Both the position numbers and the translations under genes were made by a program. DNA of 64,000 nucleotides from Alistipes sp. (GTDB lineage: Bacteria > Bacteroidota > Bacteroidia > Bacteroidales > Rikenellaceae): the NCBI GenBank assembly GCA_017504265.1, contig JAFVRN010000001.1, positions 33,203-97,202 on the forward strand, read 5' to 3'. Below, piece after piece: positions 5,788 through 60,858 of this stretch. Under the pieces are notes generated by a model, which saw only the letters and a program-made list of their open reading frames with translations, was not told where the DNA came from and did not search any database. Every line of letters begins with the position of its first letter. Within the stretch, counting starts at the first letter, position 1.

Positions 5788-5950
5788 ATTGATTAGTATT
5801 ATGCCGATACCATAGGCAAGAACCGTGCAATTAGAGCTATAATAAATATATAAGGTATAGATAGCCGCTAAAAGTGGCTAAAAGGGTATTGAGGTTTGCG
5901 TTTTTTTCAGATAATTACTACCTTTGCTCACAATACCTAAAACAAGAATT

Positions 5951-7540: not shown

Positions 7541-7546
7541 GATAGA

Positions 7547-8136
7547 GGGCGTGTCCAATAAGTTTTTGGACACGCTCCTTATTTTAGAAGGGTAGTTCAC
7601 GCCTGCGGCGTTAAAGGGTAGTTGAAGAGTAGTTAAAGGGTGGCGTTGCTTTTGTTTTGCAGGGCAAAGCCCTGCCACTGCAAAGCAGTGTGGGTCAGAT
7701 GGGTTAGATGGGTCCAATGGGTTAGATGGGGATTTTTCCACCGAACCCACAAAACCCACAAAACCCATAGAACCCACAAAACCCACAAAACCCACTGAAC
7801 CCACTGAACCCACTGAACCCACTGAACCCACTGAACCCACTGAACCCACTGAACCCACTGAACCCACTGAACCCACTGAACCCACTGAACACTGAACCCA
7901 CTGAACCCACTGAACCCACTGAACCCACTGAACCCATAGAACCCACTGAACCCACTGAACCCATAGAACCCATAGAACCCACAACACTCGGGATAATGAG
8001 CGGTAAAACCCCAATTTTTGTCAGAAGGGGTTAGCTGTGGCCTCGATTAAGAGATTGCCCCGGATGGATAGTACTTAGCGTACATTCCATTCGGGGCAAT
8101 GATTGAGAGGTCGCAGATGACCCCTTATCACAAAAA
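7547..8136 (-). repeat. Mosaic repeat copy 2 (inverted): Q palindrome, tail, GCAGGGC palindrome, 27-unit 9-mer array (7742-7982, one unit only 7 nt), linker, hairpin H-A (8015-8136)
   Basis: Direct alignment with copies 1 and 3. Confidence 0.92.
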
Positions 8137-25274: not shown

Positions 25275-25290
25275 CGTATATTTGCACCAG

Positions 25291-25459
25291 CATTGGTTCT
25301 CAGGGGCTACGCTCCTATGGAGATTAAAAGGGAAATGGGTGAGATTCCCATACAGTTCCCGCTGCTGTAAGTTCTCAAAAAGCTCTACGACATCAATTTG
25401 TCACTGGCCGCAAGGCTGGGAAGGCATCGTAGAGCGGAACAAGTCAGAAGACCTGCCAA
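25291..25459 (+). ncRNA. Cobalamin riboswitch
   Basis: AAGGGAA...GGTGAGATTCC...CCCGCTGCTGTAA...CACTGG...GGGAAGGC...B12 box AAGTCAGAAGACCTGCC; lies upstream of btu genes. Confidence 0.93.
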
Positions 25460-25528
25460 GCGTTTATAACGAGATTATGCCTACGGCGAATGGGCTGGTC
25501 TGCGACTTGATTATTAATCGAGTGAAAT

Positions 25529-25675
25529 ATGAAAAATGAGGTTACCATAGTAGCACCCAAGGGTGTTGTTGGCGGCGTAGGTATTATGTCGCAGGTATCC
25601 CCTATTTGGCATAATCTCGTTGTGTCGGTTACGGAGAATGACTTTTCACAAACCTTAAAAAAACACAACGTATGA
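25529..25675 (+). CDS. Possible 48-aa upstream ORF (MKNEVTIVAPKG...KKHNV)
   Basis: First A-rich-context ATG after the riboswitch; its TGA overlaps the next ATG (ATGA). No recognisable homology. Confidence 0.3.
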   Translation: MKNEVTIVAPKGVVGGVGIMSQVSPIWHNLVVSVTENDFSQTLKKHNV

Positions 25676-25845
25676 GAAAACAACAATTTGGCTACCACAA
25701 GGTAGGGGGCTATGTACGACCGTCGATAGAGGTCATCACAGCCGAGGTAGAACAAGGATTTTTGTTATCGGATATCGGAGGTGGCTCGGAGCCCGAGCCA
25801 GAAGATCCGGGTAACCAAGAGCCATCGCCTTGGGAAGATATGTAA
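25672..25845 (+). CDS. 57-aa YVxP-motif micro-protein P1 (MRKQQFGYHKVGGYVRPSIEVITAEVEQGFLLSDIGGGSEPEPEDPGNQEPSPWEDM)
   Basis: Manually translated; shares its motif with the ORFs at 36274 and 39337; not in the ORF track. Confidence 0.8.
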   Translation: MRKQQFGYHKVGGYVRPSIEVITAEVEQGFLLSDIGGGSEPEPEDPGNQEPSPWEDM

Positions 25846-25875
25846 AACAGTAACAACATTAACATTGACTAAACT

Positions 25876-27816
25876 ATGAAAAGAATAATTATAGTGTTGG
25901 CTGTTGCTATCATATCGGCAGCCTGCGATAAGAGCTTCGAGAATATCAACAACTATGAGCCTTGCGACGAGGCATTGATAATCACGGGATATAACGGCGA
26001 GTATACCCGTACCGAATTTGGCACACCCAACGACACAGAGATACCCTTCTTATGGTCTGCGGGCGACTATATTTGGTTGGGCGAGAATCGCAGTCAGAGC
26101 ATCTCCGAGGATTGTTCTTTGGCACACTTTAACTTCGATGCCGGCACAGCAGTTATCGGCACCGGCCACGTATTCTACAATATGACCGGTAAGGCAAAGA
26201 GTGCAAACGTACCTACGGAACAGTCTGCACACAAGAATTTGGGCGAGAACGGCGACTTTGGATATGCCACTCTCGACGAGTATAACTCCTTCTATTTGAA
26301 ACACAAGACAGCTTATATATGGTTTGATACCACGACACAAGATGTGGATCTACCTAAGCTCAGCTCCATCACCCTATCAACCGAGGATATCGACATAGCA
26401 GGAGAGCGTGTATATGACTTCGACAACGATAGTTGGGAGGATACAACAACAGAGGCCAGCAATAGCATAACCCTTAGCTTCGGAGATGGCATTAAGCTCC
26501 AAGAGAGCAACGAGGGCGTTATGGCCACTATGGTAGTACTTCCCGCCTCTATTAGCGGAAGCGAGATAACTATAACATACACCTTTGCAAATGGTCTTAT
26601 TTATAAAGAGGTCAAGCACCCCACAAAAAATCTCGAGGCAGGTGCAACACAGCGTATAGCCACAACCATTGCCTTAAACGACCTTGAAGAGGCAACGGCA
26701 GAGGTTGCCATCACGGCAGATAAGAGCTCGATTGTTGCCGATGGCGAGGAGAAGGTGACCTTCACTGTTACGGTTGATGGTGTAGCTACGACCGAGGATG
26801 TTAAGATTATCAACGTGGCAGATAATAGCGAACTACCCAACTTTGAGTTTACTACCACTACTGCCGGAGAGTATCAGTTTAAGGCCATCTATGATGAGGT
26901 TGAGTCTGAGATAGTGACCATTACCGCTAACGAGCCAGAATTAAGCTACGAGTTGCGAGTGCTCACATTCGAGGATAAGGATGCTCGTTTTGAGCCCTAC
27001 ACTTTGGACTACGCTGGCGCGGATATTACAACTTGGAGTGATTTGATTGATGACCCTCAGTATGGAGGTCCACTAACCTATGGAGATTATACGAATACGG
27101 CCTACACCTGGTGGGATGAGGGTAATACCGAGCTTTGTCACACCTTCCCATACAACTACGCCTACTGCTTCTGGGGTGGTGGTCACGCCATCTCGAACTA
27201 TTGGGGCGAAGGATGGAGCGACGAGGATAGAGATAACCACATCGCAAAATACTACGGCGAGGATTATGTTATAGAGAATGCCGGTAACGACCAGATGCTT
27301 GGTTGGTTCAACCTACAATTTATGATACCGGTAGAGGCCTATTCGGGCGATAACTTCGTAGTACATTATGGCTATAAAGATGACTACGCATACATTGAAA
27401 ATCTACCAGAGATTGCGTTTGCAGATGATGTAGCTCGTGTTATTGACCATATGTGGGTAACCAATACGAACTACACCTTGAATCAATTATACAATGGTGT
27501 GAAGAGCGAGGCCGGCAATAGCTTTGGTGGCAACTGGGAAGGTCTTACCGAGGATGCTTGGTTGAAGATTACAGCCCAAGGATTTGACGATGTGGAGGCC
27601 GATGCTTACGCCGAGCCTATCAGCGAGGTTGAGTTCTACTTGGTACAGGGAGAAAATGTAGTAACCGATTGGCAGAAGTGGGATCTCTCGGGGCTTGGTG
27701 CGGTAAAAAAGGTGCGCTTCAACTTCCTCTACTCCGAAGAGATGGGAGGACGCTACGGATTTACTATTCCGGGCTACTTCGCATATGATGACGTGGCAGT
27801 GCGTTTTGAAAAATAG
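25876..27816 (+). CDS. Lipoprotein: fimbrillin/type V pilin-like N-terminus, Ig-like domain, DUF4465 (BtuJ-like) C-terminus
   Basis: Lipobox ISAAC; TRT...WSAGDYIW...VPTEQ...HKTAYI; ITADKSSIVADG Ig repeat; C-terminal GGHAISNY, VTNTNY, DWQKWDLSGLG, PGYFAYDDV. Confidence 0.7.
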   Translation: MKRIIIVLAVAIISAACDKSFENINNYEPCDEALIITGYNGEYTRTEFGTPNDTEIPFLWSAGDYIWLGENRSQSISEDCSLAHFNFDAGTAVIGTGHVFYNMTGKAKSANVPTEQSAHKNLGENGDFGYATLDEYNSFYLKHKTAYIWFDTTTQDVDLPKLSSITLSTEDIDIAGERVYDFDNDSWEDTTTEASNSITLSFGDGIKLQESNEGVMATMVVLPASISGSEITITYTFANGLIYKEVKHPTKNLEAGATQRIATTIALNDLEEATAEVAITADKSSIVADGEEKVTFTVTVDGVATTEDVKIINVADNSELPNFEFTTTTAGEYQFKAIYDEVESEIVTITANEPELSYELRVLTFEDKDARFEPYTLDYAGADITTWSDLIDDPQYGGPLTYGDYTNTAYTWWDEGNTELCHTFPYNYAYCFWGGGHAISNYWGEGWSDEDRDNHIAKYYGEDYVIENAGNDQMLGWFNLQFMIPVEAYSGDNFVVHYGYKDDYAYIENLPEIAFADDVARVIDHMWVTNTNYTLNQLYNGVKSEAGNSFGGNWEGLTEDAWLKITAQGFDDVEADAYAEPISEVEFYLVQGENVVTDWQKWDLSGLGAVKKVRFNFLYSEEMGGRYGFTIPGYFAYDDVAVRFEK

Positions 27817-27819
27817 TAT

Positions 27820-29583
27820 ATGAATAGATTTTTAGATTTTTTGTTTTTAAGTGTGGCTATTGCGATGTTCTCGTCTTGTAATATAGACGAGGACATCACG
27901 GTGGCAAACCTCCCAAAGATTATTCTCGATAGCGAGAATGGAATATATAGAGTAAAACAGGGGCGTGAGATTACTATTGCCCCAAGCTATGAGTATGCCG
28001 AAGGGGCGACTTATAACTGGACTATGAATGGTGAGGTACTGGGCACTTCACCCTCATTGTCATTTATCGGAGAGGAACTTGGCGAGCACTTTATAATGCT
28101 TACCATAACCACCGATGGAGGTTCGGACAGCGAGGAGATACGTGTCGATGTGGTAGAGTTGGAGATTCCCACCGTAAGCATTGCAGGCGAAGATAGGATG
28201 ACTGTTGCCATCGGAGCAGAATTAAGCCTGCGTGCCACTATTCGAGAGACCTCGCTTCAAACAAGCTTCCATTGGAGCATCAACACGGAAGAGGTGGGCA
28301 CAGAACTCAACTACACATTCAAAGCCGAGAAGGTCGGTAATTACACCATTACCGCAACGGCAACAAATGAAGATGGTACTCATAGCGACACTATCGCTAT
28401 TGAGGTGCTAAATAGAGAGGATATGCCTATTATGTGGGAGTTTGACCGCACAGCATATCATACAGTTGTGGGGCGCAAACTGCTAATTAAGCCCACTGCC
28501 ATAAGTAACGCAGAGGGTGCTACCTACACTTGGCAGGTAGGAGATGATGAGGCCACGGTTGGCAACGAGTCGTTTGTCTTTACCGCCGATAATGTCGGTG
28601 AGTATAACATCCAAGCTACCGCCTCTATCGAACGTGAAGGTAAGCAAATTACGCTCACCCACACGTTTGTAGTTACTGTCTATGAGGCTGGGGCTTTCTA
28701 TCGTGCAAAGAGCAGCACATCAAAAGCCGATTGGAATAAGGTATACGAATATACCCCCGCACCAGGTCAATTTATTAACGAGTTAAAGACAGGTGGTTTC
28801 GACGGTACGCAGACTACTCCGGAATCGGCTATTGCCTATGCCGAGGCACGAATGAACGAGGTAGATAGAGAGGGTAATCCCTATCCTAATTGGGTCTCGC
28901 TGGGTGGCTTTGGCGGATATATCATCGTAGGCTTCGACCACAGCATAGATAACTCTGGCGACTACGACCTCGGCATCCTCGGCAACTCGTTCAGCGGCTC
29001 TTCGGAGCCTGGCATTGTATGGGTTATGCAGGATGAAAATGGTAACGGTATACCCGACGATACGTGGTATGAGCTCTCGGGCTCGGAGACGGGTAAGGCG
29101 GAGACCATTCAGCAGTATTCGGTGACCTACTACCGCCCAACAGGTCCGATGATGCCTGTACTATGGACAGACAACCTTGGAGGTAGCGGAGAGATTGACT
29201 ATCTCACCCAATTCCACCGACAGGAGTATTACTATCCGCTTTGGGTTGAGGAGGATAGCTATACTCTTACAGGAACACTACTTAAAGCTCGCAACTACGA
29301 TGCTTCGGGCAATGGTTCTTATTGGGTAAATGGAGAGTACGATTGGGGCTATGCCGACAATTTTAGTGCTATTGACAGACTTTCGGACAGCGCAAATGCC
29401 AACGCCGATATCAATGCCAACCACTTCAAAATATCGCACGCCATAGACTTTGAGTGCCGGCCTATACATCTCGACTATATCGACTTTGTGAAGGTGCAGG
29501 TTGGTGTAAATGCCAAGAGTGGATGGATTGGAGAGCTATCTACTGAGGTATGCGGCTTTTATGACTATAGTATGAAAAAGTAA
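27820..29583 (+). CDS. BtuH-like surface lipoprotein (PKD-like repeats plus B12-binding domain)
   Basis: Lipobox FSSC; three PKD-like repeats; EYTPAPGQFIN, VSLGGFGGYI, SEPGIVWVMQDENGNGIPDDTWYEL. Confidence 0.8.
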   Translation: MNRFLDFLFLSVAIAMFSSCNIDEDITVANLPKIILDSENGIYRVKQGREITIAPSYEYAEGATYNWTMNGEVLGTSPSLSFIGEELGEHFIMLTITTDGGSDSEEIRVDVVELEIPTVSIAGEDRMTVAIGAELSLRATIRETSLQTSFHWSINTEEVGTELNYTFKAEKVGNYTITATATNEDGTHSDTIAIEVLNREDMPIMWEFDRTAYHTVVGRKLLIKPTAISNAEGATYTWQVGDDEATVGNESFVFTADNVGEYNIQATASIEREGKQITLTHTFVVTVYEAGAFYRAKSSTSKADWNKVYEYTPAPGQFINELKTGGFDGTQTTPESAIAYAEARMNEVDREGNPYPNWVSLGGFGGYIIVGFDHSIDNSGDYDLGILGNSFSGSSEPGIVWVMQDENGNGIPDDTWYELSGSETGKAETIQQYSVTYYRPTGPMMPVLWTDNLGGSGEIDYLTQFHRQEYYYPLWVEEDSYTLTGTLLKARNYDASGNGSYWVNGEYDWGYADNFSAIDRLSDSANANADINANHFKISHAIDFECRPIHLDYIDFVKVQVGVNAKSGWIGELSTEVCGFYDYSMKK

Positions 29584-29586
29584 ACT

Positions 29587-30657
29587 ATGACGACAAAGTG
29601 TGTGCGCCTTATACTGCTTACGCTACTCCTACTGCATAGCTCTTGTATGAAGTGGGAATATGGCTTGGAGGAGGAGTTTCAAAACGACGCCTCGGAACGT
29701 GGTCTGTTTATATGCAACGAGGGTAACTTCCAGTATGGCAATGCCACACTATCGTACTACAACCCCGAAACAAAAGAGGTTCAAAACGAGGTATTCTATC
29801 GTGCCAATGCCATGAAACTTGGTGATATAGCACAGTCTATGGTCATACGCAACGGCATAGGCTGGGTGGTGGTAAACAACTCGCACGTAATCTTTGCTAT
29901 CGACGTAAACACCTTCAAGGAGGTGGGGCGTATAACAAACCTTACATCGCCTCGATACATACACTTCCTATCGGACGAGAAGGCCTACGTAACACAGATT
30001 TGGGATAATCGTATATTTATCGTAAACCCCAAACGCTACGAGATAACAGGCTATATTGATGTGCCGAAGATGACTATGGAATCGGGCTCTACGGAGCAGA
30101 TGGTGCAATATGGTAAGTACGTATATGTCAATTGCTGGTCATACCAAAACCGAATACTTAAAATCGACACCGAGACCGATCAGGTGGTAGATGAACTCGT
30201 CGTAGGCATTCAGCCTACATCACTTGTTATGGACTGTAATAACAAGCTGTGGACTATCACGGATGGTGGCTACGAGGGCTCACCCTATGGACACGAGGCG
30301 CCCTCGCTCTATCGCATCGATGCCGAGAGTTTCACAATCGAGAAGCAATTCAAATTTGAGTTTGGCGACTGGCCATCTGAGGTACAACTCAACGGCACAA
30401 AGGATAAGCTATATTGGCTTAACGACGATGTATGGGAGATGGATGTAACAGCCGACAGAGTGCCTGTACGTCCGTTCCTGCCCTACAACGGCACTATATA
30501 CTACGGCCTTACGGTAGACCCAACCAATGGCGATGTATATATCGCCGATGCGATAGACTATGTTCAGCAGGGGATGGTATATCGCTACTCGAAAGATAGA
30601 GAACTCATAGATAGCTTCTACGTGGGTATCATACCAGGAGCATTTTGTTGGAAATAA
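29587..30657 (+). CDS. btuG: BtuG-like beta-propeller cobalamin-binding lipoprotein (YncE family)
   Basis: Lipobox HSSC; NEGNFQYGNATLSYY, LGDIAQSM, VYIADAIDY, VGIIPGAFCWK; adjacent to a TonB-dependent receptor under a B12 riboswitch. Confidence 0.87.
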   Translation: MTTKCVRLILLTLLLLHSSCMKWEYGLEEEFQNDASERGLFICNEGNFQYGNATLSYYNPETKEVQNEVFYRANAMKLGDIAQSMVIRNGIGWVVVNNSHVIFAIDVNTFKEVGRITNLTSPRYIHFLSDEKAYVTQIWDNRIFIVNPKRYEITGYIDVPKMTMESGSTEQMVQYGKYVYVNCWSYQNRILKIDTETDQVVDELVVGIQPTSLVMDCNNKLWTITDGGYEGSPYGHEAPSLYRIDAESFTIEKQFKFEFGDWPSEVQLNGTKDKLYWLNDDVWEMDVTADRVPVRPFLPYNGTIYYGLTVDPTNGDVYIADAIDYVQQGMVYRYSKDRELIDSFYVGIIPGAFCWK

Positions 30658-32721
30658 ATGTATTGCAATATGAAGAGACTTTTAGTTATACTATGCACTA
30701 CACTTATTCCCTTCATTGTGACGGCACAAGAGACCGATGCCGAGTCTTGGGCAAAACGAGACTTTCACATCAAAGAGGTTATGGTCTATGGTCAGCGACC
30801 GATGAAAGAGATTGGCACGCAGCAGACCAAAATCGACTCGATTGTTCTAAAAGAGAATATTGCCCTCTCTATGGCCGATGTTCTTACGTTCAACTCCTCT
30901 ATCTTTGTTAAGAACTATGGTCGTGCCACACTCTCTACGGTAGCCTTCCGAGGAACATCACCCTCACACACGCAGGTGTCGTGGAACGGAATGAAGATAA
31001 ACAACCCGATGCTCGGTATGACCGACTTCTCGATGATACCCTCCTACTTTATCGACGATGCCTCGCTACTACACGGCACATCGTCTGTAAATGAGACGGG
31101 AGGAGGCCTTGGTGGTGCTGTCAAGCTATCGACCAAACCTGCAGATGCCAAAGGCTTTGGCTTGCAGTATGTTCAGGGCATTGGTTCGTTCAAAACCTTT
31201 GATGAGTTTCTACGTCTTACATATGGTAACGACCATTGGCAGACCTCAACTCGTGCCGTATTCTCTTCATCGCCCAACGACTACAAATTCCGCAACCACG
31301 ACAAAAAGGAGAATATCTACGATGAGGATATGAATATCATCGACCAATACTACCCTATTGAGCGCAATCGTAGCGGTTCCTACAAAGATCTACACATCTT
31401 GCAGGAGGTATACTACAATACGGGGCGAGGCGACCGATTCGGTTTGAATGCGTGGTATATCAACTCCAATCGAGAGCTTGCTATGCTCACCGTCGATCAC
31501 GGCGACGACACCGACTTCGATAACCGCCAGCGTGAGCAGACCTTCCGTGGAGTCCTTTCGTGGGATCATCTGCGCAACGATTGGAAGATTGGGGCAAAGG
31601 CGGGCTACATCTATACGTGGATGGCCTACGACTACAAACGAGATGTAGGCAATGGCACTATGATGCATATGACACGCTCACGCAGCCGCATCAACACCTT
31701 CTATGGGCAGGTTGATGGCGAGTATCATATTGGCAATAAGTGGCTCTTTACGGCCAACCTCTCGCTGCATCAGCATATCGTAGAGAGCGAGGATAAGAAT
31801 ATCATTCGTCAGGATGGAGGCAAGGCTATCGTCGGCTACCGTAAGGGTCGCCCCGAGCTTTCGGGGTCAATCTCTGCGAAGTGGCGTCCTATCGACCGCA
31901 TAGGACTCTCGGTTGTCGTACGTGAGGAGATGTTCGGCAAGGAGTGGACTCCGATTATTCCGGCACTCTTTATCGACGGTGTACTCTCGAAGCGTGGCAA
32001 TATTGTGGCCAAGGCCTCCGTATCACGCAACTATCGCTTCCCAACACTCAACGACCTCTACTTCCTCCCGGGAGGCAATCCCGACCTTAAAAAGGAGAGC
32101 GGTTGGACCTACGATGCAGGGCTATCGTTTGCCGTTGGACGAGAGGGCATCTACTCGCTGAGTGGCTCGGCCAACTGGTTTGAGTCGTTTATCGAGGATT
32201 GGATAATCTGGCTACCTACAACCAAGGGATTCTTCTCACCCGAGAATATCAAAGATGTACACGCCTACGGAGTAGAGCTCAAAGCTGACCTAAATGTTGC
32301 CCTCACCAAAGAGTGGCAACTGGGGCTGAATGGCACCTTCTCATGGACTCCTTCTATAAATCGAGGTGAGCCACGCACCCCTGCCGACCAATCCGTAGGT
32401 AAGCAGCTGCCCTACGTGCCTGAATTTTCATCTACCATTACAGGACGCTTGTCGTGGCGTCGGTGGACATTCCTGTATAAGTGGTGTTACTACTCGGAGC
32501 GATATACTATGTCCTCCAACGACATCTCACTTACGGGCAAGCTACCGCCCTACTTTATGAGCAACATATCACTCGAAAAGGTACTGACATTCAGCTGGGC
32601 CGATCTCTCGCTGAAAGGTACTATAAACAACCTCTTCGACGAGGAGTACCTCTCGGTACTATCACGCCCTATGCCGGGCATCAACTTCGAGATTTTCATA
32701 GGCATCACACCTAAGTGGTAG
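30658..32721 (+). CDS. btuB: TonB-dependent cobalamin receptor (start may be 30670)
   Basis: Plug motif AFRGTSPSHT...WNG, RFPTLNDLY...GNPDLKKE, INNLFDEEY...PMPG; riboswitch context. Confidence 0.87.
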   Translation: MYCNMKRLLVILCTTLIPFIVTAQETDAESWAKRDFHIKEVMVYGQRPMKEIGTQQTKIDSIVLKENIALSMADVLTFNSSIFVKNYGRATLSTVAFRGTSPSHTQVSWNGMKINNPMLGMTDFSMIPSYFIDDASLLHGTSSVNETGGGLGGAVKLSTKPADAKGFGLQYVQGIGSFKTFDEFLRLTYGNDHWQTSTRAVFSSSPNDYKFRNHDKKENIYDEDMNIIDQYYPIERNRSGSYKDLHILQEVYYNTGRGDRFGLNAWYINSNRELAMLTVDHGDDTDFDNRQREQTFRGVLSWDHLRNDWKIGAKAGYIYTWMAYDYKRDVGNGTMMHMTRSRSRINTFYGQVDGEYHIGNKWLFTANLSLHQHIVESEDKNIIRQDGGKAIVGYRKGRPELSGSISAKWRPIDRIGLSVVVREEMFGKEWTPIIPALFIDGVLSKRGNIVAKASVSRNYRFPTLNDLYFLPGGNPDLKKESGWTYDAGLSFAVGREGIYSLSGSANWFESFIEDWIIWLPTTKGFFSPENIKDVHAYGVELKADLNVALTKEWQLGLNGTFSWTPSINRGEPRTPADQSVGKQLPYVPEFSSTITGRLSWRRWTFLYKWCYYSERYTMSSNDISLTGKLPPYFMSNISLEKVLTFSWADLSLKGTINNLFDEEYLSVLSRPMPGINFEIFIGITPKW

Positions 32722-32877
32722 CCCTTGGCCGCCGCCGCAATATCACCCCAAATAGCAATTTCGAGAGGCCTGTCAGGCTCTTTTCAAAAAAATGTTAATA
32801 AAATAACATTGCTCTGTTGCGAAATTCGGAATTTTTGTTTACTTTTGTGCGCAACATAAATTCTTAACCTGATTGCT

Positions 32878-34353
32878 ATGTCTTTTATTGATGAAAGGGT
32901 ACAGACAACAGGTCTCACATTCGATGATGTGTTGCTCGTACCTGCCTATTCTGAGGTTTTACCTCGCGAAGTTTCGACTGCCGGTCGTTTCTCTCGCAAT
33001 ATCAAGCTGAACATCCCTATCGTATCTGCCGCCATGGACACCGTGACCGAGGCCACGTTGGCTATTGCATTGGCACGTGAGGGCGGTATCGGCGTCATCC
33101 ACAAGAATATGTCTATCGCAGCTCAGGCAGCCCACGTACGTCGTGTTAAGCGTGCCGAGAGCGGTATGATCTACGACCCTGTAACCATCTCCAAGGAGAA
33201 TACCGTAGGCGATGCCCTACAACTTATGCAGGAAAATAAGATTGGCGGTATCCCTGTTGTCGATGAGCGCAATATGCTTATCGGTATCGTCACCAACCGC
33301 GACCTACGTTTCCAGAGCGATATGGAGCGTCGTATCGAGGAGGTTATGACCAAGGAGAATATCGTCACTACGCACGACACCGACCTTAAACTCGCTGCCG
33401 AGGTGCTTCTTGCCAACAAGATCGAGAAGCTTCCTGTTGTCGATGATGAGGGTCACCTTATCGGTCTTATCACCTACCGCGATATCACCAAGCTCAAGGA
33501 TAACCCCAACGCCTGCAAGGATGCCAAGGGTCGTCTGCGTGTTGCTGCCGGCATCGGTATCACACCCGACGCTATGGATCGTGTAGCAGCCTTGGTTGCC
33601 GAGGAGGTGGATGCCGTAGTTTTGGACTCGGCACACGGCCACACCAAGGGTGTTGTATCGCTTCTAAAACAGATTAAACAGACCTATCCGCACCTCGACG
33701 TTGTTGTAGGTAACATCGCTACTGCCGAGGCTGCCAAGTATCTTATAGAGAATGGTGCCGATGGCATCAAGGTAGGTATCGGCCCCGGCTCAATATGTAC
33801 CACGCGTATCATTGCCGGTGTGGGTGTTCCCCAGCTTTCGGCTATCTACGATGCCTCTACCGAGGCCAAGAAGGCGGGCGTGCCTATCATTGCCGACGGT
33901 GGTTTGCGCTACTCGGGCGATATAGTCAAGGCTTTGGCTGCAGGTGGCAACTGCGTTATGGTAGGCTCTATGTTTGCCGGTGTCGAGGAGTCACCCGGCG
34001 ATACTATCATCTACAATGGCCGTAAGTTCAAGGCATACCGAGGCATGGGCTCTATCGATGCTATGAAGGCCGGTTCTGCCGACCGCTACTTCCAGAAGGG
34101 TGCCGAGGGCAATATCAACAAGCTCGTTCCCGAGGGTATCGTTGGCCGAGTGCCATTCAAGGGCAAGCTTTCGGAGACTGTCTTCCAGCTTGTAGGAGGC
34201 ATACGTGCCGGTATGGGTTATTGCGGTGCTAAGGACATCGAGACATTGCAGCAGGCACGTTTCATCCGCATCACATCGAGTGGCGTTACGGAGAATCACC
34301 CGCACGACATCACCATCACCAGCGAGACTCCTAACTATTCACGTGGCGAATAA
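32878..34353 (+). CDS. guaB: IMP dehydrogenase
   Basis: [11 protein letters not shown] pair, [16 protein letters not shown]. Confidence 0.97.
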
Positions 34354-34362
34354 TAGAACAAT

Positions 34363-35892
34363 ATGACAGAGAAGATACTCATAATTGATTTTGGATCACA
34401 ATATACGCAGCTCATAGCACGCCGTATCCGTGAGATGCAGGTATATTGCGAAATTCACCCCTTCAATAATGTCCCTGCCCTCGACTCTTCGGTGCGTGGC
34501 GTTATTATGTCGGGTTCACCCCGCTCGGTGCGCGATGCCGAAGCACCTCGCATCACCCTCGATGCCATCAAGGGGCAGCTGCCGCTGCTCGGCGTATGCT
34601 ATGGCGCGCAGTACCTTGCACACTTCTTCGGTGGCAAGGTGGAGGCCTCGCCCAGCCGTGAGTATGGCCGTGCCCAGATGAAGGTTGTAGATGCGTGCGA
34701 CCCTCTTATGCAGGGTCTTAGCCCCGAGTCACAGGTATGGATGTCGCACGGCGACACCATCACCACCATCCCCGAGGGCTACTCTATTATCGCCTCTACA
34801 TCGGATGTAGCAGTTGCCGCATACCGCATCACAACGGAGCAGACATGGGGCATACAGTTCCACCCCGAGGTATACCACTCTGAGGAGGGCTTCAAGATGT
34901 TGGAGAACTTCGTTGTCGGCATCTGCGGCTGTCAGCAGTCGTGGACTCCTGCAAGTTTTGTGGAGAGTACCGTTAAGGAGCTTCGCGAGAAGCTTGGCGA
35001 CGACAAGGTTGTCTTGGGCTTGTCGGGAGGTGTCGATTCGTCGGTTGCCGCACTACTCTTGCACAAGGCTATCGGCAAGAACCTATACTGCATATTCGTC
35101 GATTCGGGACTTTTGCGCAAGGATGAGTTTGCCGAGGTTATCGAGTCATACCGAGGTATGGGTCTAAATGTCAAGGGTGTAGATGCTTCGGACAAGTTCC
35201 TGGGCGACCTGGCAGGTGTCACCGACCCCGAGACCAAGCGTAAGATTATCGGTCGTGACTTTGTTGAGGTCTTTGAAGCCGAGGCTAAGCAGCTTAGCGG
35301 TGTCAAGTGGCTCGGACAGGGCACTATCTATCCCGATGTTGTCGAGTCAGCACAGGTCAATGGCACTGCCGTTGTCATCAAGTCGCATCACAATGTTGGC
35401 GGTCTTCCCGAGAAGATGGGTTTGAAGGTTGTCGAGCCGTTGCGTCTGCTTTTCAAGGATGAGGTACGTCGTGTAGGTCGCTCTATGGGTATGCCCGAGC
35501 GTCTTATCAGCCGTCACCCATTTCCAGGCCCTGGTTTGGCTATACGTATCCTTGGCGAGATCACCCGCGAGAAGGTCGAAATCTTGCAGAACGTAGATAA
35601 AATCTATATAGACACCTTGCGCGAGACCGGCTGGTACGATAAGATTTGGCAGGCGGGAGCAATACTGCTCCCCGTGCAGTCTGTGGGTGTCATGGGTGAT
35701 GAGCGCACCTACGAGCGATGTGTTGCTCTGCGTGCCGTGCAGTCTACCGATGGCATGACTGCCGACTGGGTACATATACCCTACGAGATATTGGCACGTC
35801 TGTCGAACGAGATTATAAATAAGGTACGCGGTGTAAACCGAGTAGTCTACGATATTTCGTCAAAGCCACCCGCCACAATCGAGTGGGAGTAA
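34363..35892 (+). CDS. guaA: GMP synthase (glutamine-hydrolysing)
   Basis: [31 protein letters not shown]. Confidence 0.97.
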
Positions 35893-35905
35893 TCAGATGA
35901 ATTTT

Positions 35906-35934
35906 GGGGCTGACCTGCGGGTCGGCCTTTTTTT
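35906..35934 (+). terminator. Intrinsic terminator after guaA
   Basis: GGGCTGACC-TGCG-GGTCGGCCT plus T run. Confidence 0.8.
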
Positions 35935-36273
35935 GTGGAGTATGGCCGAGAGCTGTAAGAGCCTTGGCGGTTTCTGCCGAACTGTCATAACCCCTATTGA
36001 CCATAAGAGACAAACAACAACCGCACCCTTGCGCCCCATCCATATATTTTACAACCTATTGCGTAGCATCAGTTACTGTCATTTTTTTATAATTACGTTT
36101 GTTTATTTATAATTTATTTATACCTTTGCACTATTATAGGTGTGATAATCAGGGGAGTTATACAATCCGCAAGAGGCCGATAATGTGAGGCAGGTGAAGA
36201 TATAGGCACGGTGTATAGCCACTCCGAAATCGCATATATACGTGAAAACCAACAACTTAATTTTTATAAACCT

Positions 36274-36405
36274 ATGAGAAAGTTATTTTCAACCGAGGAG
36301 TATGTAGCTCCTGAGATGGAGGTTGTGGCAACTGCCGTAGAGAGCGGTTTTGCCATTTCCGGCAGCATTGATCTTGCTGATGAGTATGAGATTGGCGAAC
36401 TTTAA
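36274..36405 (+). CDS. 43-aa YVxP-motif micro-protein P2 (MRKLFSTEEYVAPEMEVVATAVESGFAISGSIDLADEYEIGEL)
   Basis: A-rich start context; promoter TACCTTTG at 36121-36128; excess of synonymous changes relative to P3. Confidence 0.85.
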   Translation: MRKLFSTEEYVAPEMEVVATAVESGFAISGSIDLADEYEIGEL

Positions 36406-36417
36406 TCTATTGCAACT

Positions 36418-38595
36418 ATGAAGAACATTTTCAAAAGTTTGATGCTTGTTGCAGTAGCTGCAATGGCATTTACGGCTTGTCAGAACGAGCCTGAGTATGT
36501 AGCCGAGAATGGCGGTGAGACTATCGAGATCCGTGTTGAGGCCGGTGTGGATGACACACGTGTATATTTTGGCAACAAGGTTCTCAACTACTATGCTGCA
36601 TACTGGCATGGTACAGAGACCGTTAATGGTTTCCTTTGCGAGGGTAAGGATGGTAGCGGTGCTGAGCACTACGATGCCGTAGAGCTTACCTCTGAGATTG
36701 CCGGTGACAACCGTGTATTCTTCGATCTTAAATTTACCGATGTTAAGGATGTTAAGGATGGCGTTGTTAAGCTCAATGTTGGTTACAACAAGAGCTTCAC
36801 TGTTCCTACTGCCCAGACTCCATTGGCAGACTCTGTAGACCCTGCTGCCATGTTCCTTTCTGGCGAGGCATCATTTAGCAATGGTGCTTACGAGAACCTC
36901 CTTCTCGACCTTGGTTTCGATACTGCTTATGGTAAGATGACTGTCAAGAATGTTGCCGGCGACATCGAAGAGCTTATACTTACTCTCGATGACAAGAAGT
37001 ACAACCTCAACCCCGAGAATGTTGAGAATGGCGTATTTTGGTTTGCTTGCGATGCTTGCACTCCTAAGAAGGCAAGTGTATCTATCGTCGCCGACTACAA
37101 CCTCTACGTTAAGGAGCTTGACCTTACAGCTGCCGAGAACCCATTCAAGTTCGAGAAGGGCACTGTATCTACATTTGCAGTAAACTTTGCAGGTGTCGAA
37201 GCCGATCCTAACGCATACCTTGTACAGTATGAGACTGACAAGTTAGAGGCTTACGGCGTATCAGCTTATTTCGAAGGTTCACATGGATGGAAACTTGTTG
37301 ATAGCGAGAGTAACTCTCAGATTCACTTCGTTCTCAACCGATTGAATACTCCTACCTTGAAGTGCTTTAAGCCTGGCACATACACAAAGTCATCTGCATA
37401 CAAAGATCCCTCTAACAAGCAGACTATCGAGGAGACATGTGTATTTATTGAGAAGTATACGACTGACGGCTCTAACTACACATACAACTCTGGTATTACT
37501 TCGGCATCTATGACCATCACCTTTGTTGAGGCTACTGCTACCGAGGCGGCTTACTATCAGATTATTGTTAATGCCAACGGCGACAAGTTTGGTTTCCGCG
37601 GTATGCCAGAGGGCTTTATCTCGTTCGACGACTTTGAGCCTGTAACACTTGCAGCTCCTGAGGGCTTGGTGGCAGATCCCGAGTATAACAATATCACATT
37701 GAGCTGGAATTCTGTTGCAGGTGCTGATTACTACGAGCTATACCTTGGCAACCCGGCAGGCGCTAGCAATGCCAAGGGTATTAGAGTAGATGGCACTTCA
37801 TACACTCATACCGGCTATGATGTAGATCCAGGCGTAACACAGCAGTGGACAGTACGCGCTGTTAGCAACTACCCTGCTGAGCGACTCACCTCTGCTTGGA
37901 GCAGCCCCTTGGCATCGTTCGTATATCCTGAGGAGCCAGTGCAGTTGGACGCTCCTACCGTATCTGTTAAGGCGGGTAGCGATGCCGAGTACGGCTCTGT
38001 AACCATTCAGTGGAATGCGGTGAATAATGCTGATTACTATGCAGTATACGATTCTGCTGCTGCTAATGCTACTCCTGTTGCAACAATCACTGCTACAGAG
38101 TACACTTACACCTATAGCGACCTCAATGCCGGTACAGCTTACCTTTGGGTACGTGCTATGAGCGATGGCTCTGCAATCAACTCGGAGTTGGCTCAGGTTA
38201 CATTTACCGTTCCTGAGAAGAGCCAGGGCGGAGAGGTTACTATCCCTGAGGGATATGCAAAATTGGATTCAATAGCTCTTGGTTCAGCTTCATACAACAG
38301 TAATTATTGTGGATTCTTGGCAGCATTCTCTTATGTTAATGCAAATTCAGAAAAGGAATCTGGCAATTTGATTTATTGGGCAGGTGGTAATAGTACTATA
38401 CTTAAAGAAGGCACATATACTTGGGCGCAGTATCCAGATTATTCTGGCACAGGATTAGCATTCAAGATCCAGGGTTTCCGTCACAATGGTCTAAAAACCG
38501 CAACGAGTGGCGAAATGAAGGTTGAAGGCAAGCTTCTAACTTTCAGCTTCACAGCAGAAGGAACTGAGTACAAGTATTACCATATTTTGGAGTAA
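36418..38595 (+). CDS. Surface lipoprotein: fimbrillin-like N-terminus, GTY-motif beta domains, two FN3-like domains
   Basis: Lipobox FTAC; DDTR; VPTAQTP..SVDPAA; AYGKMT; FN3-like ITLSWNSVAGADYY and VTIQWNAVNNADYY. Confidence 0.75.
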   Translation: MKNIFKSLMLVAVAAMAFTACQNEPEYVAENGGETIEIRVEAGVDDTRVYFGNKVLNYYAAYWHGTETVNGFLCEGKDGSGAEHYDAVELTSEIAGDNRVFFDLKFTDVKDVKDGVVKLNVGYNKSFTVPTAQTPLADSVDPAAMFLSGEASFSNGAYENLLLDLGFDTAYGKMTVKNVAGDIEELILTLDDKKYNLNPENVENGVFWFACDACTPKKASVSIVADYNLYVKELDLTAAENPFKFEKGTVSTFAVNFAGVEADPNAYLVQYETDKLEAYGVSAYFEGSHGWKLVDSESNSQIHFVLNRLNTPTLKCFKPGTYTKSSAYKDPSNKQTIEETCVFIEKYTTDGSNYTYNSGITSASMTITFVEATATEAAYYQIIVNANGDKFGFRGMPEGFISFDDFEPVTLAAPEGLVADPEYNNITLSWNSVAGADYYELYLGNPAGASNAKGIRVDGTSYTHTGYDVDPGVTQQWTVRAVSNYPAERLTSAWSSPLASFVYPEEPVQLDAPTVSVKAGSDAEYGSVTIQWNAVNNADYYAVYDSAAANATPVATITATEYTYTYSDLNAGTAYLWVRAMSDGSAINSELAQVTFTVPEKSQGGEVTIPEGYAKLDSIALGSASYNSNYCGFLAAFSYVNANSEKESGNLIYWAGGNSTILKEGTYTWAQYPDYSGTGLAFKIQGFRHNGLKTATSGEMKVEGKLLTFSFTAEGTEYKYYHILE

Positions 38596-38617
38596 CAATA
38601 TTAGTTACACTTGTTTT

Positions 38618-38652
38618 TCCGGGGCTCTCATCGAGGGCCTCGGATTTTTTTT
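38618..38652 (+). terminator. Intrinsic terminator (paralog at 42283)
   Basis: TCCGGGGCTCTC-ATC-GAGGGCCTCGGA plus T8. Confidence 0.85.
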
Positions 38653-39140
38653 GTGGGTGCGGTGGGTTCGTGAGTTCGGTGGGTTCGTGAGTTCGGTGGG
38701 TTCGTGAGTTCGGTGGGGGCTGTGGGTGCGGTGGGTTCTATGGGATCTATGGGTTCGGTGGGTGCGGTGGGTGCGGTGGGTGCGGTGGGTGCGGTGGGTG
38801 CGGTGAGAAAAATCCCCATTTAACCCATCTGACCCATCTGACCCACGCTGCTTTGCAGTGGCAGGGCATCGCCCTGCAATAATGGGTTCTGTGAGTGCGG
38901 TGGGTTCTGTGGGTTCTGTGGGAAAAATTCCCATCTGACCCATTTAACCCATTGGACCCATTGGACCCACGCTGCTTTGCAGTGGCAGGGCACAGCCCTG
39001 CAAAACAAAAGCCACGCTCCCTTCAACTACCCTTAACTACCCTTTAACGCCGCAGGCGTGAACTACCCTTTCCGCTGCACAGCAGAGGGCAGGGCATCGC
39101 CCTGCAACAACCGCCCTGCAAAAAAATCCCCCTGCAACAA
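38653..39140 (+). repeat. Mosaic repeat copy 4: two 9-mer/inverted-9-mer blocks (including 3x 17-bp GTGGGTTCGTGAGTTCG), three GCAGGGC palindromes, tail; no long hairpin
   Basis: Same modules as copy 1. Confidence 0.9.
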
Positions 39141-39336
39141 TTACCGCAAAAAAGAATTATTTTTTTCTCACTTTTTTGCAAAATAAAAAAAAATACATAC
39201 CTTTGTATTGATAAAACTGTATATATCCCAAAGTGGCTATATGGGATAATATCTTGAGGAAGATGCAGACAAACGCGATAATTTTACGCAAACAACTAAT
39301 TTTTAACACTATACATTAACTTATTTTTTAACAACT

Positions 39337-39492
39337 ATGAAAACTATCAATTCTGCAATGGAGTATGTAGCTCCTGAGCTTGAGGTCGTTTCAACAGTCG
39401 TTGAGAGCGGCTTTGCCATTTCGGGCATCGAGGACCTGGGATGGGGTGGTGGTATCGACGATGCTACCGAGAATGATTGTGGTGGATTCTAA
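39337..39492 (+). CDS. 51-aa YVxP-motif micro-protein P3 (MKTINSAMEYVAPELEVVSTVVESGFAISGIEDLGWGGGIDDATENDCGGF)
   Basis: Manually translated; not in the ORF track; promoter TACCTTTG at 39198-39205; 19 of 22 core residues identical to P2. Confidence 0.85.
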   Translation: MKTINSAMEYVAPELEVVSTVVESGFAISGIEDLGWGGGIDDATENDCGGF

Positions 39493-39506
39493 AAACTATT
39501 GCAACT

Positions 39507-42260
39507 ATGAAGAACATTTTTAAGAGTTTGATGCTCGTTGCAGTAGCTGCAATGACATTCACAGCTTGTCAGACCGACTTCGAGGAGGTAGGTGTTGCTG
39601 ACAAGAGTTTCACTGTTACCGGTATTGCTTCGTTTGACGATGCTACACGTTCGGGCTTTGGTGACTACACCGCAGCTGCCGGCGACAAGGATGCTTTCTT
39701 CTCATCTAAGTGGGATGGTGGCGAGAGCGTAAAGGTATATCTTAGCGAGACAATTTATTGGCCTATATGGGCTACCAAGGTATCTAAGATGACTATACCT
39801 TCAGGTGGCGACGGCAAGACTGCAAGCTTTGCTGCTGAGTTCGATTTCGAGGGTGAGTATGACGGCATTCCAGAGCACGGTACATTCACTGCATATGTTC
39901 CTGCTGAGGCTTGGGACGGCGACGTAGCCGTAGTTCCTACTTTCCAGACTCCACGCGAGAAGTCGGTAGATCCTGCTGCTCACATTCTTATTGGTACAGG
40001 TAAGTTCGAGAATGCTAAGCTTGAGGACGTCGAGTTCAAGTTTGCTCACGCCGTAGCTTATGGCAAGATGACTTTGAAGGGTGTAGACACTGCGTTTGCT
40101 CCTGTAAAGGCTGAGCTCGAGTTCTATGGCAAGGATGGTAAGCTTAACGTCGTAACTCTTGACACCAAGAATGTAAAGGCTAACGAGTACTGGTTTGCTG
40201 TAAATCCTATGGAGGTTGCTAAGTTCAACGTTGTTGTTTACGACAAGGATGGCAACGCTTACTCTAAGGCCGCTACCGTTGGTACTTCTTCATCTTTGAA
40301 CTTCGTTAAGGGTCAGGTATCTACATTCAACGTAACAATGGCGAAGGGCGACCTTCCTTATGTTAAGTATGCTGACAACTCATACAAGGTACTCGGTGGT
40401 AAAAATGGTTTGGGTGACAAGCCTGCATTCGATTTGTTCATCTACAATGAGGGTTCATCTGAGGATGACTACGAGCTATTCCTTGTTTGCGACGAGGCTC
40501 TTTACAACGTGATTCCTGAGGGTACTTACAACTACAGCGCAACAGCTACCAGCGGTCAGTATATTCACGCAGCAAGCTGCGAGAATGTTTCAGACGCAAG
40601 CGTAGTTGTTAAGCATGTTGTTGAGAAGGATAAGGATGGCAACGTAACATTCGGTGGTTACAAGCTCAACATCACTGTTAAGGATGCAGAGGGCAACTAT
40701 GCTAAGTATCGCTTTATGGATGCTATCGAGCCTGACTATGATAACTATGCATATAATCTTAACAATCCTCCTATTCCTTTCAACGAGGCAACTATCGAGG
40801 GTAAGGTAGCTGAGCCATACGACGAGTGGGATCAGCCTGCAAGGGTTCAGAGATACAATGAGGCAGCAGAGAAGACTGAGTGGGCCGATGCTCATGGTGA
40901 CCAGTTCGAGTTGTCATTCCGTGTAAGAAACAACGATACTAAGGACGAGAAGGACTACAATATCGGCCTTACACTTGAGACTACAGCTGCAACCAAGGGT
41001 CTTATCCCAGAGGGTACATACGAGCTTGGTGGCAAGGAGAACTTCATCACTGAGGATGGTTATGCCGACTTCTACGCTATTGGTGGTTACATCGCTCTTA
41101 CAAAGGGTAGCGTAAAGGTTGAGTACACAACAGATAAGAAGTACAAGATGACCGTAAATGTTACCAACGAGATGAAGACTACCTTCAAGTTTGTCTTCGA
41201 GGGCACTTTCAAGGTAGACGAGAACAGCGATTTCCGTAATCCTGCCGACCTTCCACGTCTTGACACTCCTGAGGTAAAGTCTGAGGTTGTAAACTACACA
41301 TCTATCAAGCTTACTTGGGATGCTGTTGCCGATGCAACTAAGTATGTTGTAACTTGGGACAATGGCAACAAGAGCAAGGAGGTAGTAGAGACTACTGCAA
41401 CTATCGAGGATCTTGATACTCTATCATACTACTACTTCGAAGTTGTTGCTAAGGGTGACGAAACTAAGGTTAAGGATTCACGCGCAGCATATGCAAACGT
41501 ACAAACAGGTATCGATCCAAAGGCAGATTGGGGTACATTGGTTGAGTTCACCAATGGTCGATACCTTGCTGCTGAGTCTGATACTTGGTCTGTGTTCAAG
41601 TTCACTAATGCTGATGGTGACGAATTGAAACTCAGCGTAAGCAATGCAAAGCTCGACGATAACAACCTCCTTACCGAGGGCGTTTATGTTGACGGTTGGG
41701 ATAAGGACTACGATATTCAGAATAGCTCATATAGCGGTGCTAATTACTTCATCTCTATGTCATATCCTATGTATGTAGAGAAGAGTGGCTCTGAGTATAC
41801 AGTGACAATATTTGCATTTGCTTACGACATGAACTACTCACCTGTTGAATACAAGTTTGTATACACAGGTACTCTTCAGGATGAGGACGCAAAGCCAGAG
41901 ATTCCTGAGGTAACTGATGGCGTAGAAGTTACTTCATTCGTATATAAGGGAAAATACTATGATCTTGATGATAATGATTCTACAAGTGGAGGTAACTTTA
42001 TCTACAACATGACTTGTGCAGATGGCAAATCATTTGAGATTGAGGTATACTGGTCATATGCTGAGTCAGATGGCACGATCAAAAATGGTACTTATAACTA
42101 CTGCTGGAATACGGCTGATGCAATGTATAGCGGCTGGGATGGTTTCAGTATCATAAGTGGTACTCAATATTTAGGCTCAACTCTAACTGTTTCAGATACA
42201 CAGATTGTTTTGAGTCTTGTAGATAATGGAACTACAACTAACTACGTTTACACAAAGTAA
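39507..42260 (+). CDS. Surface lipoprotein paralog: fimbrillin-like N-terminus, four GTY-motif domains, one FN3-like domain
   Basis: Signal peptide MKNIFKSLMLVAVAAMTFTAC nearly identical to the 36418 gene; DATR; VPTFQTP..SVDPAA; HAVAYGKMT; LTWDAVADATKY. Confidence 0.75.
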   Translation: MKNIFKSLMLVAVAAMTFTACQTDFEEVGVADKSFTVTGIASFDDATRSGFGDYTAAAGDKDAFFSSKWDGGESVKVYLSETIYWPIWATKVSKMTIPSGGDGKTASFAAEFDFEGEYDGIPEHGTFTAYVPAEAWDGDVAVVPTFQTPREKSVDPAAHILIGTGKFENAKLEDVEFKFAHAVAYGKMTLKGVDTAFAPVKAELEFYGKDGKLNVVTLDTKNVKANEYWFAVNPMEVAKFNVVVYDKDGNAYSKAATVGTSSSLNFVKGQVSTFNVTMAKGDLPYVKYADNSYKVLGGKNGLGDKPAFDLFIYNEGSSEDDYELFLVCDEALYNVIPEGTYNYSATATSGQYIHAASCENVSDASVVVKHVVEKDKDGNVTFGGYKLNITVKDAEGNYAKYRFMDAIEPDYDNYAYNLNNPPIPFNEATIEGKVAEPYDEWDQPARVQRYNEAAEKTEWADAHGDQFELSFRVRNNDTKDEKDYNIGLTLETTAATKGLIPEGTYELGGKENFITEDGYADFYAIGGYIALTKGSVKVEYTTDKKYKMTVNVTNEMKTTFKFVFEGTFKVDENSDFRNPADLPRLDTPEVKSEVVNYTSIKLTWDAVADATKYVVTWDNGNKSKEVVETTATIEDLDTLSYYYFEVVAKGDETKVKDSRAAYANVQTGIDPKADWGTLVEFTNGRYLAAESDTWSVFKFTNADGDELKLSVSNAKLDDNNLLTEGVYVDGWDKDYDIQNSSYSGANYFISMSYPMYVEKSGSEYTVTIFAFAYDMNYSPVEYKFVYTGTLQDEDAKPEIPEVTDGVEVTSFVYKGKYYDLDDNDSTSGGNFIYNMTCADGKSFEIEVYWSYAESDGTIKNGTYNYCWNTADAMYSGWDGFSIISGTQYLGSTLTVSDTQIVLSLVDNGTTTNYVYTK

Positions 42261-42317: not shown

Positions 42318-42338
42318 GTTTATGGCGGTAAGGGGTGA

Positions 42339-42550
42339 GTGGGTGCAGTGGGTTCTGTGGGTTCTGTGGGTTCTGTGGGTTCTGTGGGTGCAGTGGGTGA
42401 GGTAGGTTCTGTGGGTGCGTTGGCAGGGCATCGCCCTGCAAAACAGAGGCCACGCTCCCTTCAACTACCCTTCAACTACCCTTTAACGCCGCAGGCGTGA
42501 ACTACCCTTTCCTCTGCAAAGCAGAGGGCAGGGCTTTGCCCTGCAATAAT
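42339..42550 (+). repeat. Mosaic repeat copy 5 (short): 9-mer array, two GCAGGGC palindromes, tail
   Basis: Tail CCCTTCAACTA...TTTAACGCCGCAGGCGTGAACTACCCTTT matches copies 2-4. Confidence 0.88.
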
Positions 42551-60793: not shown

Positions 60794-60858
60794 GGGCGCA
60801 AAGATAGTTAAAAATAGGTAATTAGTAGCTCCGTAAAAGGGAATTGTTACAGAGCAAA

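Follow-up and report, generated by a model that had tools for sequence, protein, structure and literature searches.

Putative precursors of linear polyphosphorylated peptides precede pilin-like lipoproteins in Alistipes and are candidate anchors of surface adhesins

The stretch of Alistipes sp. DNA analyzed here (64,000 nucleotides, nt, of contig JAFVRN010000001.1, assembly GCA_017504265.1, positions 33,203 to 97,202; hereafter the window) carries three small open reading frames (ORFs), P1, P2, and P3, each of which directly precedes a gene for a lipoprotein with a pilin-like N-terminal domain. The features of the three cassettes, with positions counted from the first letter of the window, are as follows.

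25277..25473, plus strand: cobalamin riboswitch upstream of P1, the regulatory context of cassette 1 (Rfam RF00174, 101 bits)
25672..25845, plus strand: putative precursor peptide P1, 57 amino acids (aa), with a YxxP leader, an invariant Ser, and an acidic tail
25876..27816, plus strand: partner 1, a lipoprotein with a type V pilin-like N-terminal domain and a TR (Thr-Arg) site, then Ig-like and DUF4465 domains
27820-32721: PKD, DUF5074, and TonB-receptor genes, 3' of partner 1
36121..36128, plus strand: candidate promoter-like element TAnnTTTG upstream of P2, after a terminator-like hairpin of guaA
36274..36405, plus strand: putative precursor peptide P2, 43 aa
36418..38595, plus strand: partner 2, a lipoprotein with a pilin-like domain, a TR site, and appended FN3-like domains, followed by a terminator-like hairpin
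39198..39205, plus strand: candidate promoter-like element TAnnTTTG upstream of P3
39337..39492, plus strand: putative precursor peptide P3, 51 aa, with Tyr10-x-x-Pro13 and Ser29; tail residues 35-51 are predicted to bind partner 3
39507..42260, plus strand: partner 3, a 917-aa lipoprotein with Cys21 and TR47-48, pilin-like to about residue 280, with appended domains including fn3

An earlier, sequence-only reading of this DNA had defined the three ORFs by a shared motif, and their coordinates and translations (57, 43, and 51 residues) proved correct. So did its statements that the peptides lack signal peptides, no hydrophobic signal segment having been found in P1–P3, that each ends 12–30 nt before a lipoprotein (the spacing from stop to next ATG is 30 nt for P1, 12 nt for P2, and 14 nt for P3, with the partner 3 ATG at 39507), and that P1 lies in a B12 context, as the riboswitch indicates. 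The codon changes it had counted between P2 and P3, six synonymous and three conservative non-synonymous (M/L, A/S, A/V) over the 22-codon core, were exact; however, the DNA identity of the two cassettes extends through the pilin signal peptide, and because the cassettes are paralogous duplicates these two pairs are not independent. The tails carry a net charge of −8 (P1), −5 (P2), and −6 (P3), and Pfam and NCBIfam hold no family for the three peptides. The TAnnTTTG elements agree with what we take to be the Bacteroidetes-type promoter consensus. From 25277 to 32721 the order is cobalamin riboswitch, peptide, pilin-DUF4465 lipoprotein, PKD lipoprotein, DUF5074 propeller, and TonB receptor, which resembles a Btu locus for B12 capture; one peptide–pilin pair therefore likely displays a B12-related domain. 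Metatranscriptome contigs from four runs of one study cover P3, one of which (2,962 nt) spans P3 and partner 3 (39251-42203). These contigs were not used as evidence of expression, because they do not establish strand, level, or a single transcript and may derive from DNA. Many such contigs share only the 3' end of the peptide and the pilin signal peptide (39487-39573 of the window) and diverge on both sides, which suggests many paralogous cassettes in related strains.

An iterated profile found nine copies of the peptide in the source genome (1.83 Mb, 89.6% complete), with a clear gap before the next match, and the strict motif occurs nine times there, as against zero in each of eight triplet-shuffled genomes. 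The family profile matches 1,864 clusters at 50% identity library-wide and 263 proteins of a second library, none of which bears a name beyond hypothetical; the ESM Atlas returned only 'hypothetical protein' clusters, below 0.9. The peptide was found in 57 of the 151 genomes of the bacterial family. All 33 aligned peptide cores have the same Tyr, Glu, Gly, and Ser, and the tails (219 distinct) are variable and acidic, with a median length of 15 residues (10th–90th percentile 11–20) and an aromatic C-terminus in 141 of the 219 compared with a shuffled mean of 44. A search for longer forms gave 19 matches, and the four inspected comprised three read-through fusions of the peptide with the pilin signal peptide and one unrelated fusion. 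The read-through proteins, present in the database as P0286, P0287, and P0288, with one cluster of seven members, are likely stop-loss alleles or assembly errors. Two other readings of the peptides were rejected, namely processing by a prepilin peptidase at GF, as there is no hydrophobic helix, and an arrest peptide, as the tail varies in length.

Eight of the nine copies in the genome directly precede a fimbrillin-like lipoprotein with a TR or SR site. The sequence-only reading had proposed a profile scan for adjacency to pilin-like genes, and this bore out the pairing: among the 152 lipobox proteins of the source genome, a peptide lies upstream of 8 of the 22 that match a pilin profile derived from the partners of relatives alone and upstream of none of the 130 others. 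In the best relatives' loci, 28 of 29 evaluable peptide ORFs precede a pilin-like lipoprotein (31 ORFs in the 30 best loci, leaving out the source genome's orphan and one ORF at a contig end). Over all loci, with 75 evaluable distinct peptides, the gene that follows encodes a lipobox protein for 60 and matches the pilin profile for 54, a partly circular count. At one locus only, L227, the intact peptide copy precedes a pilin and three tail-less copies do not; the latter (590-760, 5741-5953, and 12098-12274) end at or just past the invariant Ser.

The partners have a lipobox Cys and, 26–28 residues further on, the TR dipeptide. Pfam and NCBIfam gave no name to the N-terminal domains of the three window partners; the relatives-only profile matches all three (E 5e-13, 4e-8, and 2e-12), in keeping with their earlier description as fimbrillin-like. 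The partner alignment matches PDB entries 4K4K (1e-14) and 3T2L (3e-8), which we take to be type V pilins, and PF13149 is matched by two of the eight partners in the source genome. From these profile matches and the complex model described below, the partners are assigned a two-domain type V pilin fold. Of 35 partners, 4 have a donor-like motif after the pilin domain, whereas 25 of 34 stalk-size pilins end in one, and several short partners end at the last strand, so to judge by sequence the partners would mostly be tip-type proteins without a C-terminal donor strand of their own.

The peptides co-occur, and in some relatives are linked in operons, with genes for a RiPP (peptide synthesized on the ribosome and modified after translation) recognition element (RRE), a kinase, a peptidase, a nucleotidyltransferase (NTP transferase), and an ATP-binding cassette (ABC) exporter. 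The single stand-alone PqqD/RRE of the source genome (PF05402) is on contig C21; phmmer gave no significant match between it and PDB sequences. PqqD is present in 56 of the 151 family genomes, and the two-way count is 52 with both peptide and PqqD, 5 with the peptide only, 4 with PqqD only (one of which, G052, later gave peptide matches), and 90 with neither. Within the genus, peptide and PqqD occur in the same 9 of 14 genomes, a match that is hard to explain by ancestry alone. The kinase, like PqqD, is absent from five genomes of the genus, and in these no YxxP ORF lies upstream of any of 23 evaluable Mfa_like_1 genes. NTP_transf_5 occurs in 54 family genomes, 49 of which are among the 57 with the peptide and 5 of which are not.

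The neighbors of PqqD encode an HPr-kinase-like protein, an S24/S26-like peptidase, NTP_transf_5, and an ABC exporter, and at 80 kinase loci the neighbors counted were peptidase (74), PqqD (53), ABC (47), NTP (16), pilin (12), and peptide (9). All five maturation genes are present in the source genome, unlinked to the peptides and split over three loci: PqqD on C21, an ABC-kinase-peptidase operon on C32, and on C1 the NTP transferase (PF14907, E 5e-36), which closes a glycan locus after PglC-, PglD-, and DegT-like (PglE-like) genes. In some relatives a single operon holds peptide, pilin, PqqD, NTP transferase, and kinase, at times with the peptidase (L069-L073, L113, L201, L245), and those of L069-L071 lie within wza/wzc capsule loci. 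The kinase has kept His, Walker A (GxSGxGKST), and DD (NDD), with weak HprK/PEPCK matches; its close relatives are labeled Alistipes, and others Bacteroidaceae, Prevotellaceae, Muribaculaceae, Prolixibacteraceae, and Fibrobacter. GxSMxP (GFSMLP) and HR are present in the peptidase, whose best NCBIfam match is archaeal signal peptidase I (TIGR02228, E 3e-6, under the cut-off), and the best matches of the exporter are PglK, MsbA, and HepA, all under the cut-off.

In a wider set of 251 genomes PF05402 was matched in 169 and the peptide profile in 10 (two probably spurious, in long ORFs), with one genome (G326) having a peptide match and no PqqD match; because PF05402 catches many unrelated RREs, co-occurrence at the level of the order is uninformative. 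The kinase clade, at E 1e-40, is found in 2 of 251 phylum-level genomes, a set that is mostly non-Bacteroidales. A Fibrobacter-labeled contig (L257:4032-4287) has two tandem peptides followed by NTP transferase, kinase, and peptidase, with a 1,284-aa gene upstream. L121 and L124 belong to a more distant PqqD-kinase-peptidase(-ABC-NTP) clade of environmental Bacteroidales, in L124 with PqqD after a 2,285-aa gene.

With this distribution it is very improbable that the peptides are unmodified cytoplasmic elements, either translational leaders that couple lipoprotein expression or chaperones of the pre-lipoprotein. The lack of a signal peptide and the 12–30 nt spacing typical of coupled translation would suit such a role, as would the persistence of peptides in some genomes without kinase or RRE, but the close match in distribution to five unlinked maturation genes and the leader with its invariant Ser and tails of 11–20 residues would be left unaccounted for, and some copies lie downstream of their partner.

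The enzyme set is that of the linear polyphosphorylated peptides (LPPs), known from the lppA-K-B-S-D-N clusters of Paenibacillus alginolyticus DSM5050 and defined by genes for an RRE, a kinase, a peptidase, an NTP transferase, and an exporter (Popov et al. 2026, PMC13381572). LppB was reported to bind YxxP, LppK to polyphosphorylate core Ser3, and LppS to cut after FET; LppN gave no product in the heterologous host, and an unphosphorylated precursor of a Bacillus LPP was poorly cleaved (PMC13381572). The paper states that the final product and role are unknown, the NTP transferase being without its substrate, and calls LPPs restricted to Bacillota. Its supplement 2 places five Bacteroidota peptidases in other clusters, gives no precursor for them, and does not contain 'fimbr'; L121 and L124 match its Bacteroidota rows.

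In the source genome we found PqqD, an HprK-like kinase, an NTP transferase with an MsbA-like exporter, and no cyclase, and the peptides have a YxxPx[VL] leader, the invariant Ser, and a variable C-terminus. [quoted passage not shown] They differ in that the LPP leader ends in FETxxS, whereas FET (−3 to −1 before xxS) is absent from the aligned peptides here, whose consensus is VExGFAxS, and in that the many dispersed precursors (nine) are each tied to a surface-protein gene, with machinery that can span three loci. On gene set and leader start we class the peptides as an LPP-type variant without the FET end, and P1–P3 are very probably LPP-type precursors. Because the FET end is not conserved, the LPP cut site is not transferable; a cut at GF|AxS would make the serine Ser3, and one at VEx|GFAxS would make it Ser5. 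The earlier proposal of a leader-core precursor processed by unlinked enzymes is thus supported by co-occurrence and operons with five genes, but not its cut after GFxxS, as the LPP analogy puts the cut before Ser, the residue to be modified. The supposition of an undescribed system also needs correction: the enzymes are known from LPP (PMC13381572), but a literature search, with most subscription journals outside its coverage, found no paper on Bacteroidales precursors or pilin pairing, and the RRE-Finder text had no match to the terms looked for.

The YxxPx[ILV] motif and discrete RRE are also found in lasso peptide systems, where the paeninodin-type clusters likewise have a kinase and an NTP transferase, and YxxPxL and lasso tailoring have been treated in PMC10368454 and PMC7533575. 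That P1–P3 are lasso precursors is nevertheless hardly credible. In the 89.6%-complete source genome the search for a lasso cyclase gave only an MnmA-type match and that for Transglut_core3/B2 gave none, neither was seen in the operons inspected, and the Thr(−2)/Gly1 pattern is absent. Paeninodin and pseudomycoidin (PadeK/PsmK, PsmN) share with our set the HprK-type Ser kinase with DD, the PF14907-type NTP transferase, the RRE, and the ABC exporter, and in pseudomycoidin hexoses are placed on phospho-Ser in a PsmN-dependent manner (PMC6993621). In fosfazinomycin a nucleotidyltransferase ligates from a triphosphate-like surrogate (FzmZ/FzmU; preprint PMC13622209); this system, too, has a YxxP peptide, a discrete RRE, and kinases making the triphosphate-like NTP surrogate, and offers a chemical precedent for the coupling proposed below, although its product is a small-molecule phosphonate, its enzymes are others, and no surface protein takes part (PMC13622209).

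A complex of partner 3 (residues 49–283) with whole P3 was modeled in one job of three runs, with alignments supplied. The scores were 0.56, 0.78, and 0.63 (median 0.63), and the best of three controls scored 0.00; 116 of 157 solved complexes attain the score mark, as do 2 of 215 mismatched pairs, and the mark is roughly applicable as alignments were supplied. At least 61% of the contacts are common to the runs, with a predicted local distance difference test (pLDDT) value of 86–88 for the pilin chain and 43–48 for the peptide. Only residues 35–51 of P3 form the interface, on pilin residues 62–69, 104–110, 174–181, and 262–277; the tail crosses both pilin domains parallel to the last strand, the indices rising together along it. 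The acidic tail, and not the conserved leader, is thereby predicted to occupy the donor-strand groove of the partner. In the Mfa1 polymer the donor strand also runs parallel to the last pilin strand, and the donor C-terminus is required (PMC13655056). By profile (4K4K, 3T2L) the partners have a pilin fold like that of the type V pilus proteins Mfa2/FimB and Mfa1, with which they also share the lipobox and the Arg/Lys cleavage site, and the predicted course of the tail is that of a donor (PMC13655056). The known donors, however, are the C-termini of whole lipidated pilins (PMC13655056), whereas the donor here would be a ribosomal peptide of 15–25 residues on a phospho-Ser conjugate, with no stalk. 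We put binding of the tail in the partner groove at slightly better than even. The earlier idea of a donor strand for the cognate pilin has the model and sequence statistics in its favor, with the correction that the variable tail docks rather than the conserved motif; its two alternatives, leader-core precursor and donor strand, appear to hold together.

Our best explanation as a whole, with a probability of about 0.5, is that a modified LPP-type peptide acts as a miniature anchor pilin for the neighboring lipoprotein. Going by the biochemistry of LppA, LppB, LppK, and LppS, the YxxP leader would be bound by the stand-alone RRE of the genome and the invariant Ser, 19 residues after Tyr, would be phosphorylated; as in LPP, the leader would be cleaved in the cytoplasm a few residues before Ser. 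The NTP transferase might then join the peptide, by way of the Ser-polyphosphate, to a glycan, perhaps lipid-linked, and the PglK/MsbA-like ABC exporter might flip the conjugate. The exported acidic tail would, as in the one model, fill the donor-strand groove across both domains of the cleaved pilin. The TR site implies that the lipid anchor is lost, and the adhesin, released from lipid at TR, could be retained on the surface via peptide and glycan. A glycan or lipid tether is the more tentative part, and we regard it as somewhat doubtful.

Alternatively, the tail could act as a stabilizing cap, or help in folding, for a monomeric adhesin that has no donor strand and is attached otherwise, phosphorylation serving only export or leader removal. 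The complex model shows groove binding only, 8 of the 57 peptide genomes lack the NTP transferase, and the findings on the Bacillus precursor and LppN cited above (PMC13381572) would fit a cap. We find it rather improbable, given that the other 49 genomes keep NTP_transf_5, often in glycan loci, that PsmN puts hexoses on phospho-Ser (PMC6993621), that the exporter is closer to glycolipid flippases than to peptide exporters, and that the TR site implies loss of the lipid anchor. It is unlikely, too, that the mature phosphopeptide is exported and stays free, be it as a signal, a metal or phosphate carrier, or a matrix component, with the lipoprotein merely co-expressed or its receptor. The genomic evidence for LPP machinery fits a free product equally well, the tails are highly variable and acidic, peptides also occur alone or behind T9SS-like cargo genes (T9SS, type IX secretion system), and similar pilins occur without peptides; against it stand the near one-to-one adjacency with donor-less pilins, the tail-specific predicted binding in polymer geometry, the conserved aromatic C-terminus, which fits the need for the donor C-terminus in Mfa1, and the missing tails of copies that no pilin follows.

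A number of observations weigh against the anchor-pilin explanation. The FET end of LPP is not kept, and in the count of co-occurrence the related genomes are not independent, so that its Fisher p values are too favorable. The pass of the complex model may stem from the likeness to solved pili: the propeptide had been removed beforehand, which opens the groove, the controls were unrelated proteins rather than shuffled or non-cognate tails, and the peptide's own fold in the complex is uncertain. The tails are rich in Pro, Gly, and acidic residues and are weak donor-strand matches, the donor-like motif occurring in just 33 of 219 (14 when shuffled) and the mean log-odds against a donor-strand matrix being negative (−4.5), although modestly higher than for shuffled tails (−5.9, standard deviation 0.24). 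Of the 22 pilin-profile lipoproteins of the source genome 14 have no peptide, and similar pilins occur in 54 of 95 PqqD-negative genomes, although they are fewer there (median 1 vs 5.5, by a biased profile). The ninth peptide copy has no partner and lies before rpsP (G000:C28:11874-12005 = L001:375-506). The motif that reads GDGN in 53 of 74 relatives and GEGN in one is GYGN in the source genome peptidase (C32, L067:3304-3756, minus strand); none of the relatives matched with Tyr, and the activity of this copy is doubtful. In one genome (G128, 99% complete, in one contig) peptide and PqqD are present with no kinase or NTP match, two (G021, G145) have peptides with no PqqD or kinase match, two (G315, G386) have the machinery with no pilin match, and in G357 the machinery was found with neither peptide nor pilin. 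Passage of the conjugate through the outer membrane and the TR protease are left unexplained. As to the peptide-less pilin-profile genes on C12, C24, C32, and C41:10884, they might use the partner-less C28 peptide in trans.

Further counter-evidence comes from type IX secretion system (T9SS)-like genes. In nine cases the peptide comes just after a gene whose C-terminus, judged by eye, is T9SS-like, so that groove binding cannot be the sole use of the peptides; TIGR04183 is matched by just 2 of 10 such upstream genes. A variant profile recovers peptides in lineages that have the machinery and no pilin match. These variant peptides often end in RR..W.. (L271, L273, L274, L277, L278, L280, L179, L079, L089), and the genes ahead of them have C-terminal tails that are T9SS-like or shortened; BspA-type leucine-rich repeats occur in several. 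The common theme across lineages is a peptide adjoining a surface protein.

Elsewhere in the window, arrays of a 9-nt GTGGGT[GT]C[GT]-type repeat with GGCAGGGC..GCCCTGC palindromes (38650-39140 and 42323-42546) sit directly 3' of the terminators of both adhesin cassettes. Similar low-complexity repeat text, which appears as long spurious ORFs, is found at about 7190-8014 and at 59573-61156.

It is possible, and we offer it tentatively, that the RiPP machinery of gut Bacteroidales serves to make stalk-less 'one-subunit pili', in which a phospho-Ser-glycan-linked peptide anchors its cognate adhesin, with a sister arrangement serving T9SS cargo. The peptide genes are too small to be annotated. 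Because in the Bacteroidales branch each precursor has a partner, and a predicted binding site and a glycan context come with it, the question of the role of LPPs becomes directly testable. If the proposal is true, LPP peptides would be a modular system for tethering proteins to glycans and not secondary metabolites, and a surface tether would be the first function for the class. As a means of anchoring it would also differ from lipoprotein anchors, anchor pilins, and the T9SS sortase, and it would serve many adhesin-like and nutrient-binding proteins of abundant gut bacteria, one of them under B12 control.

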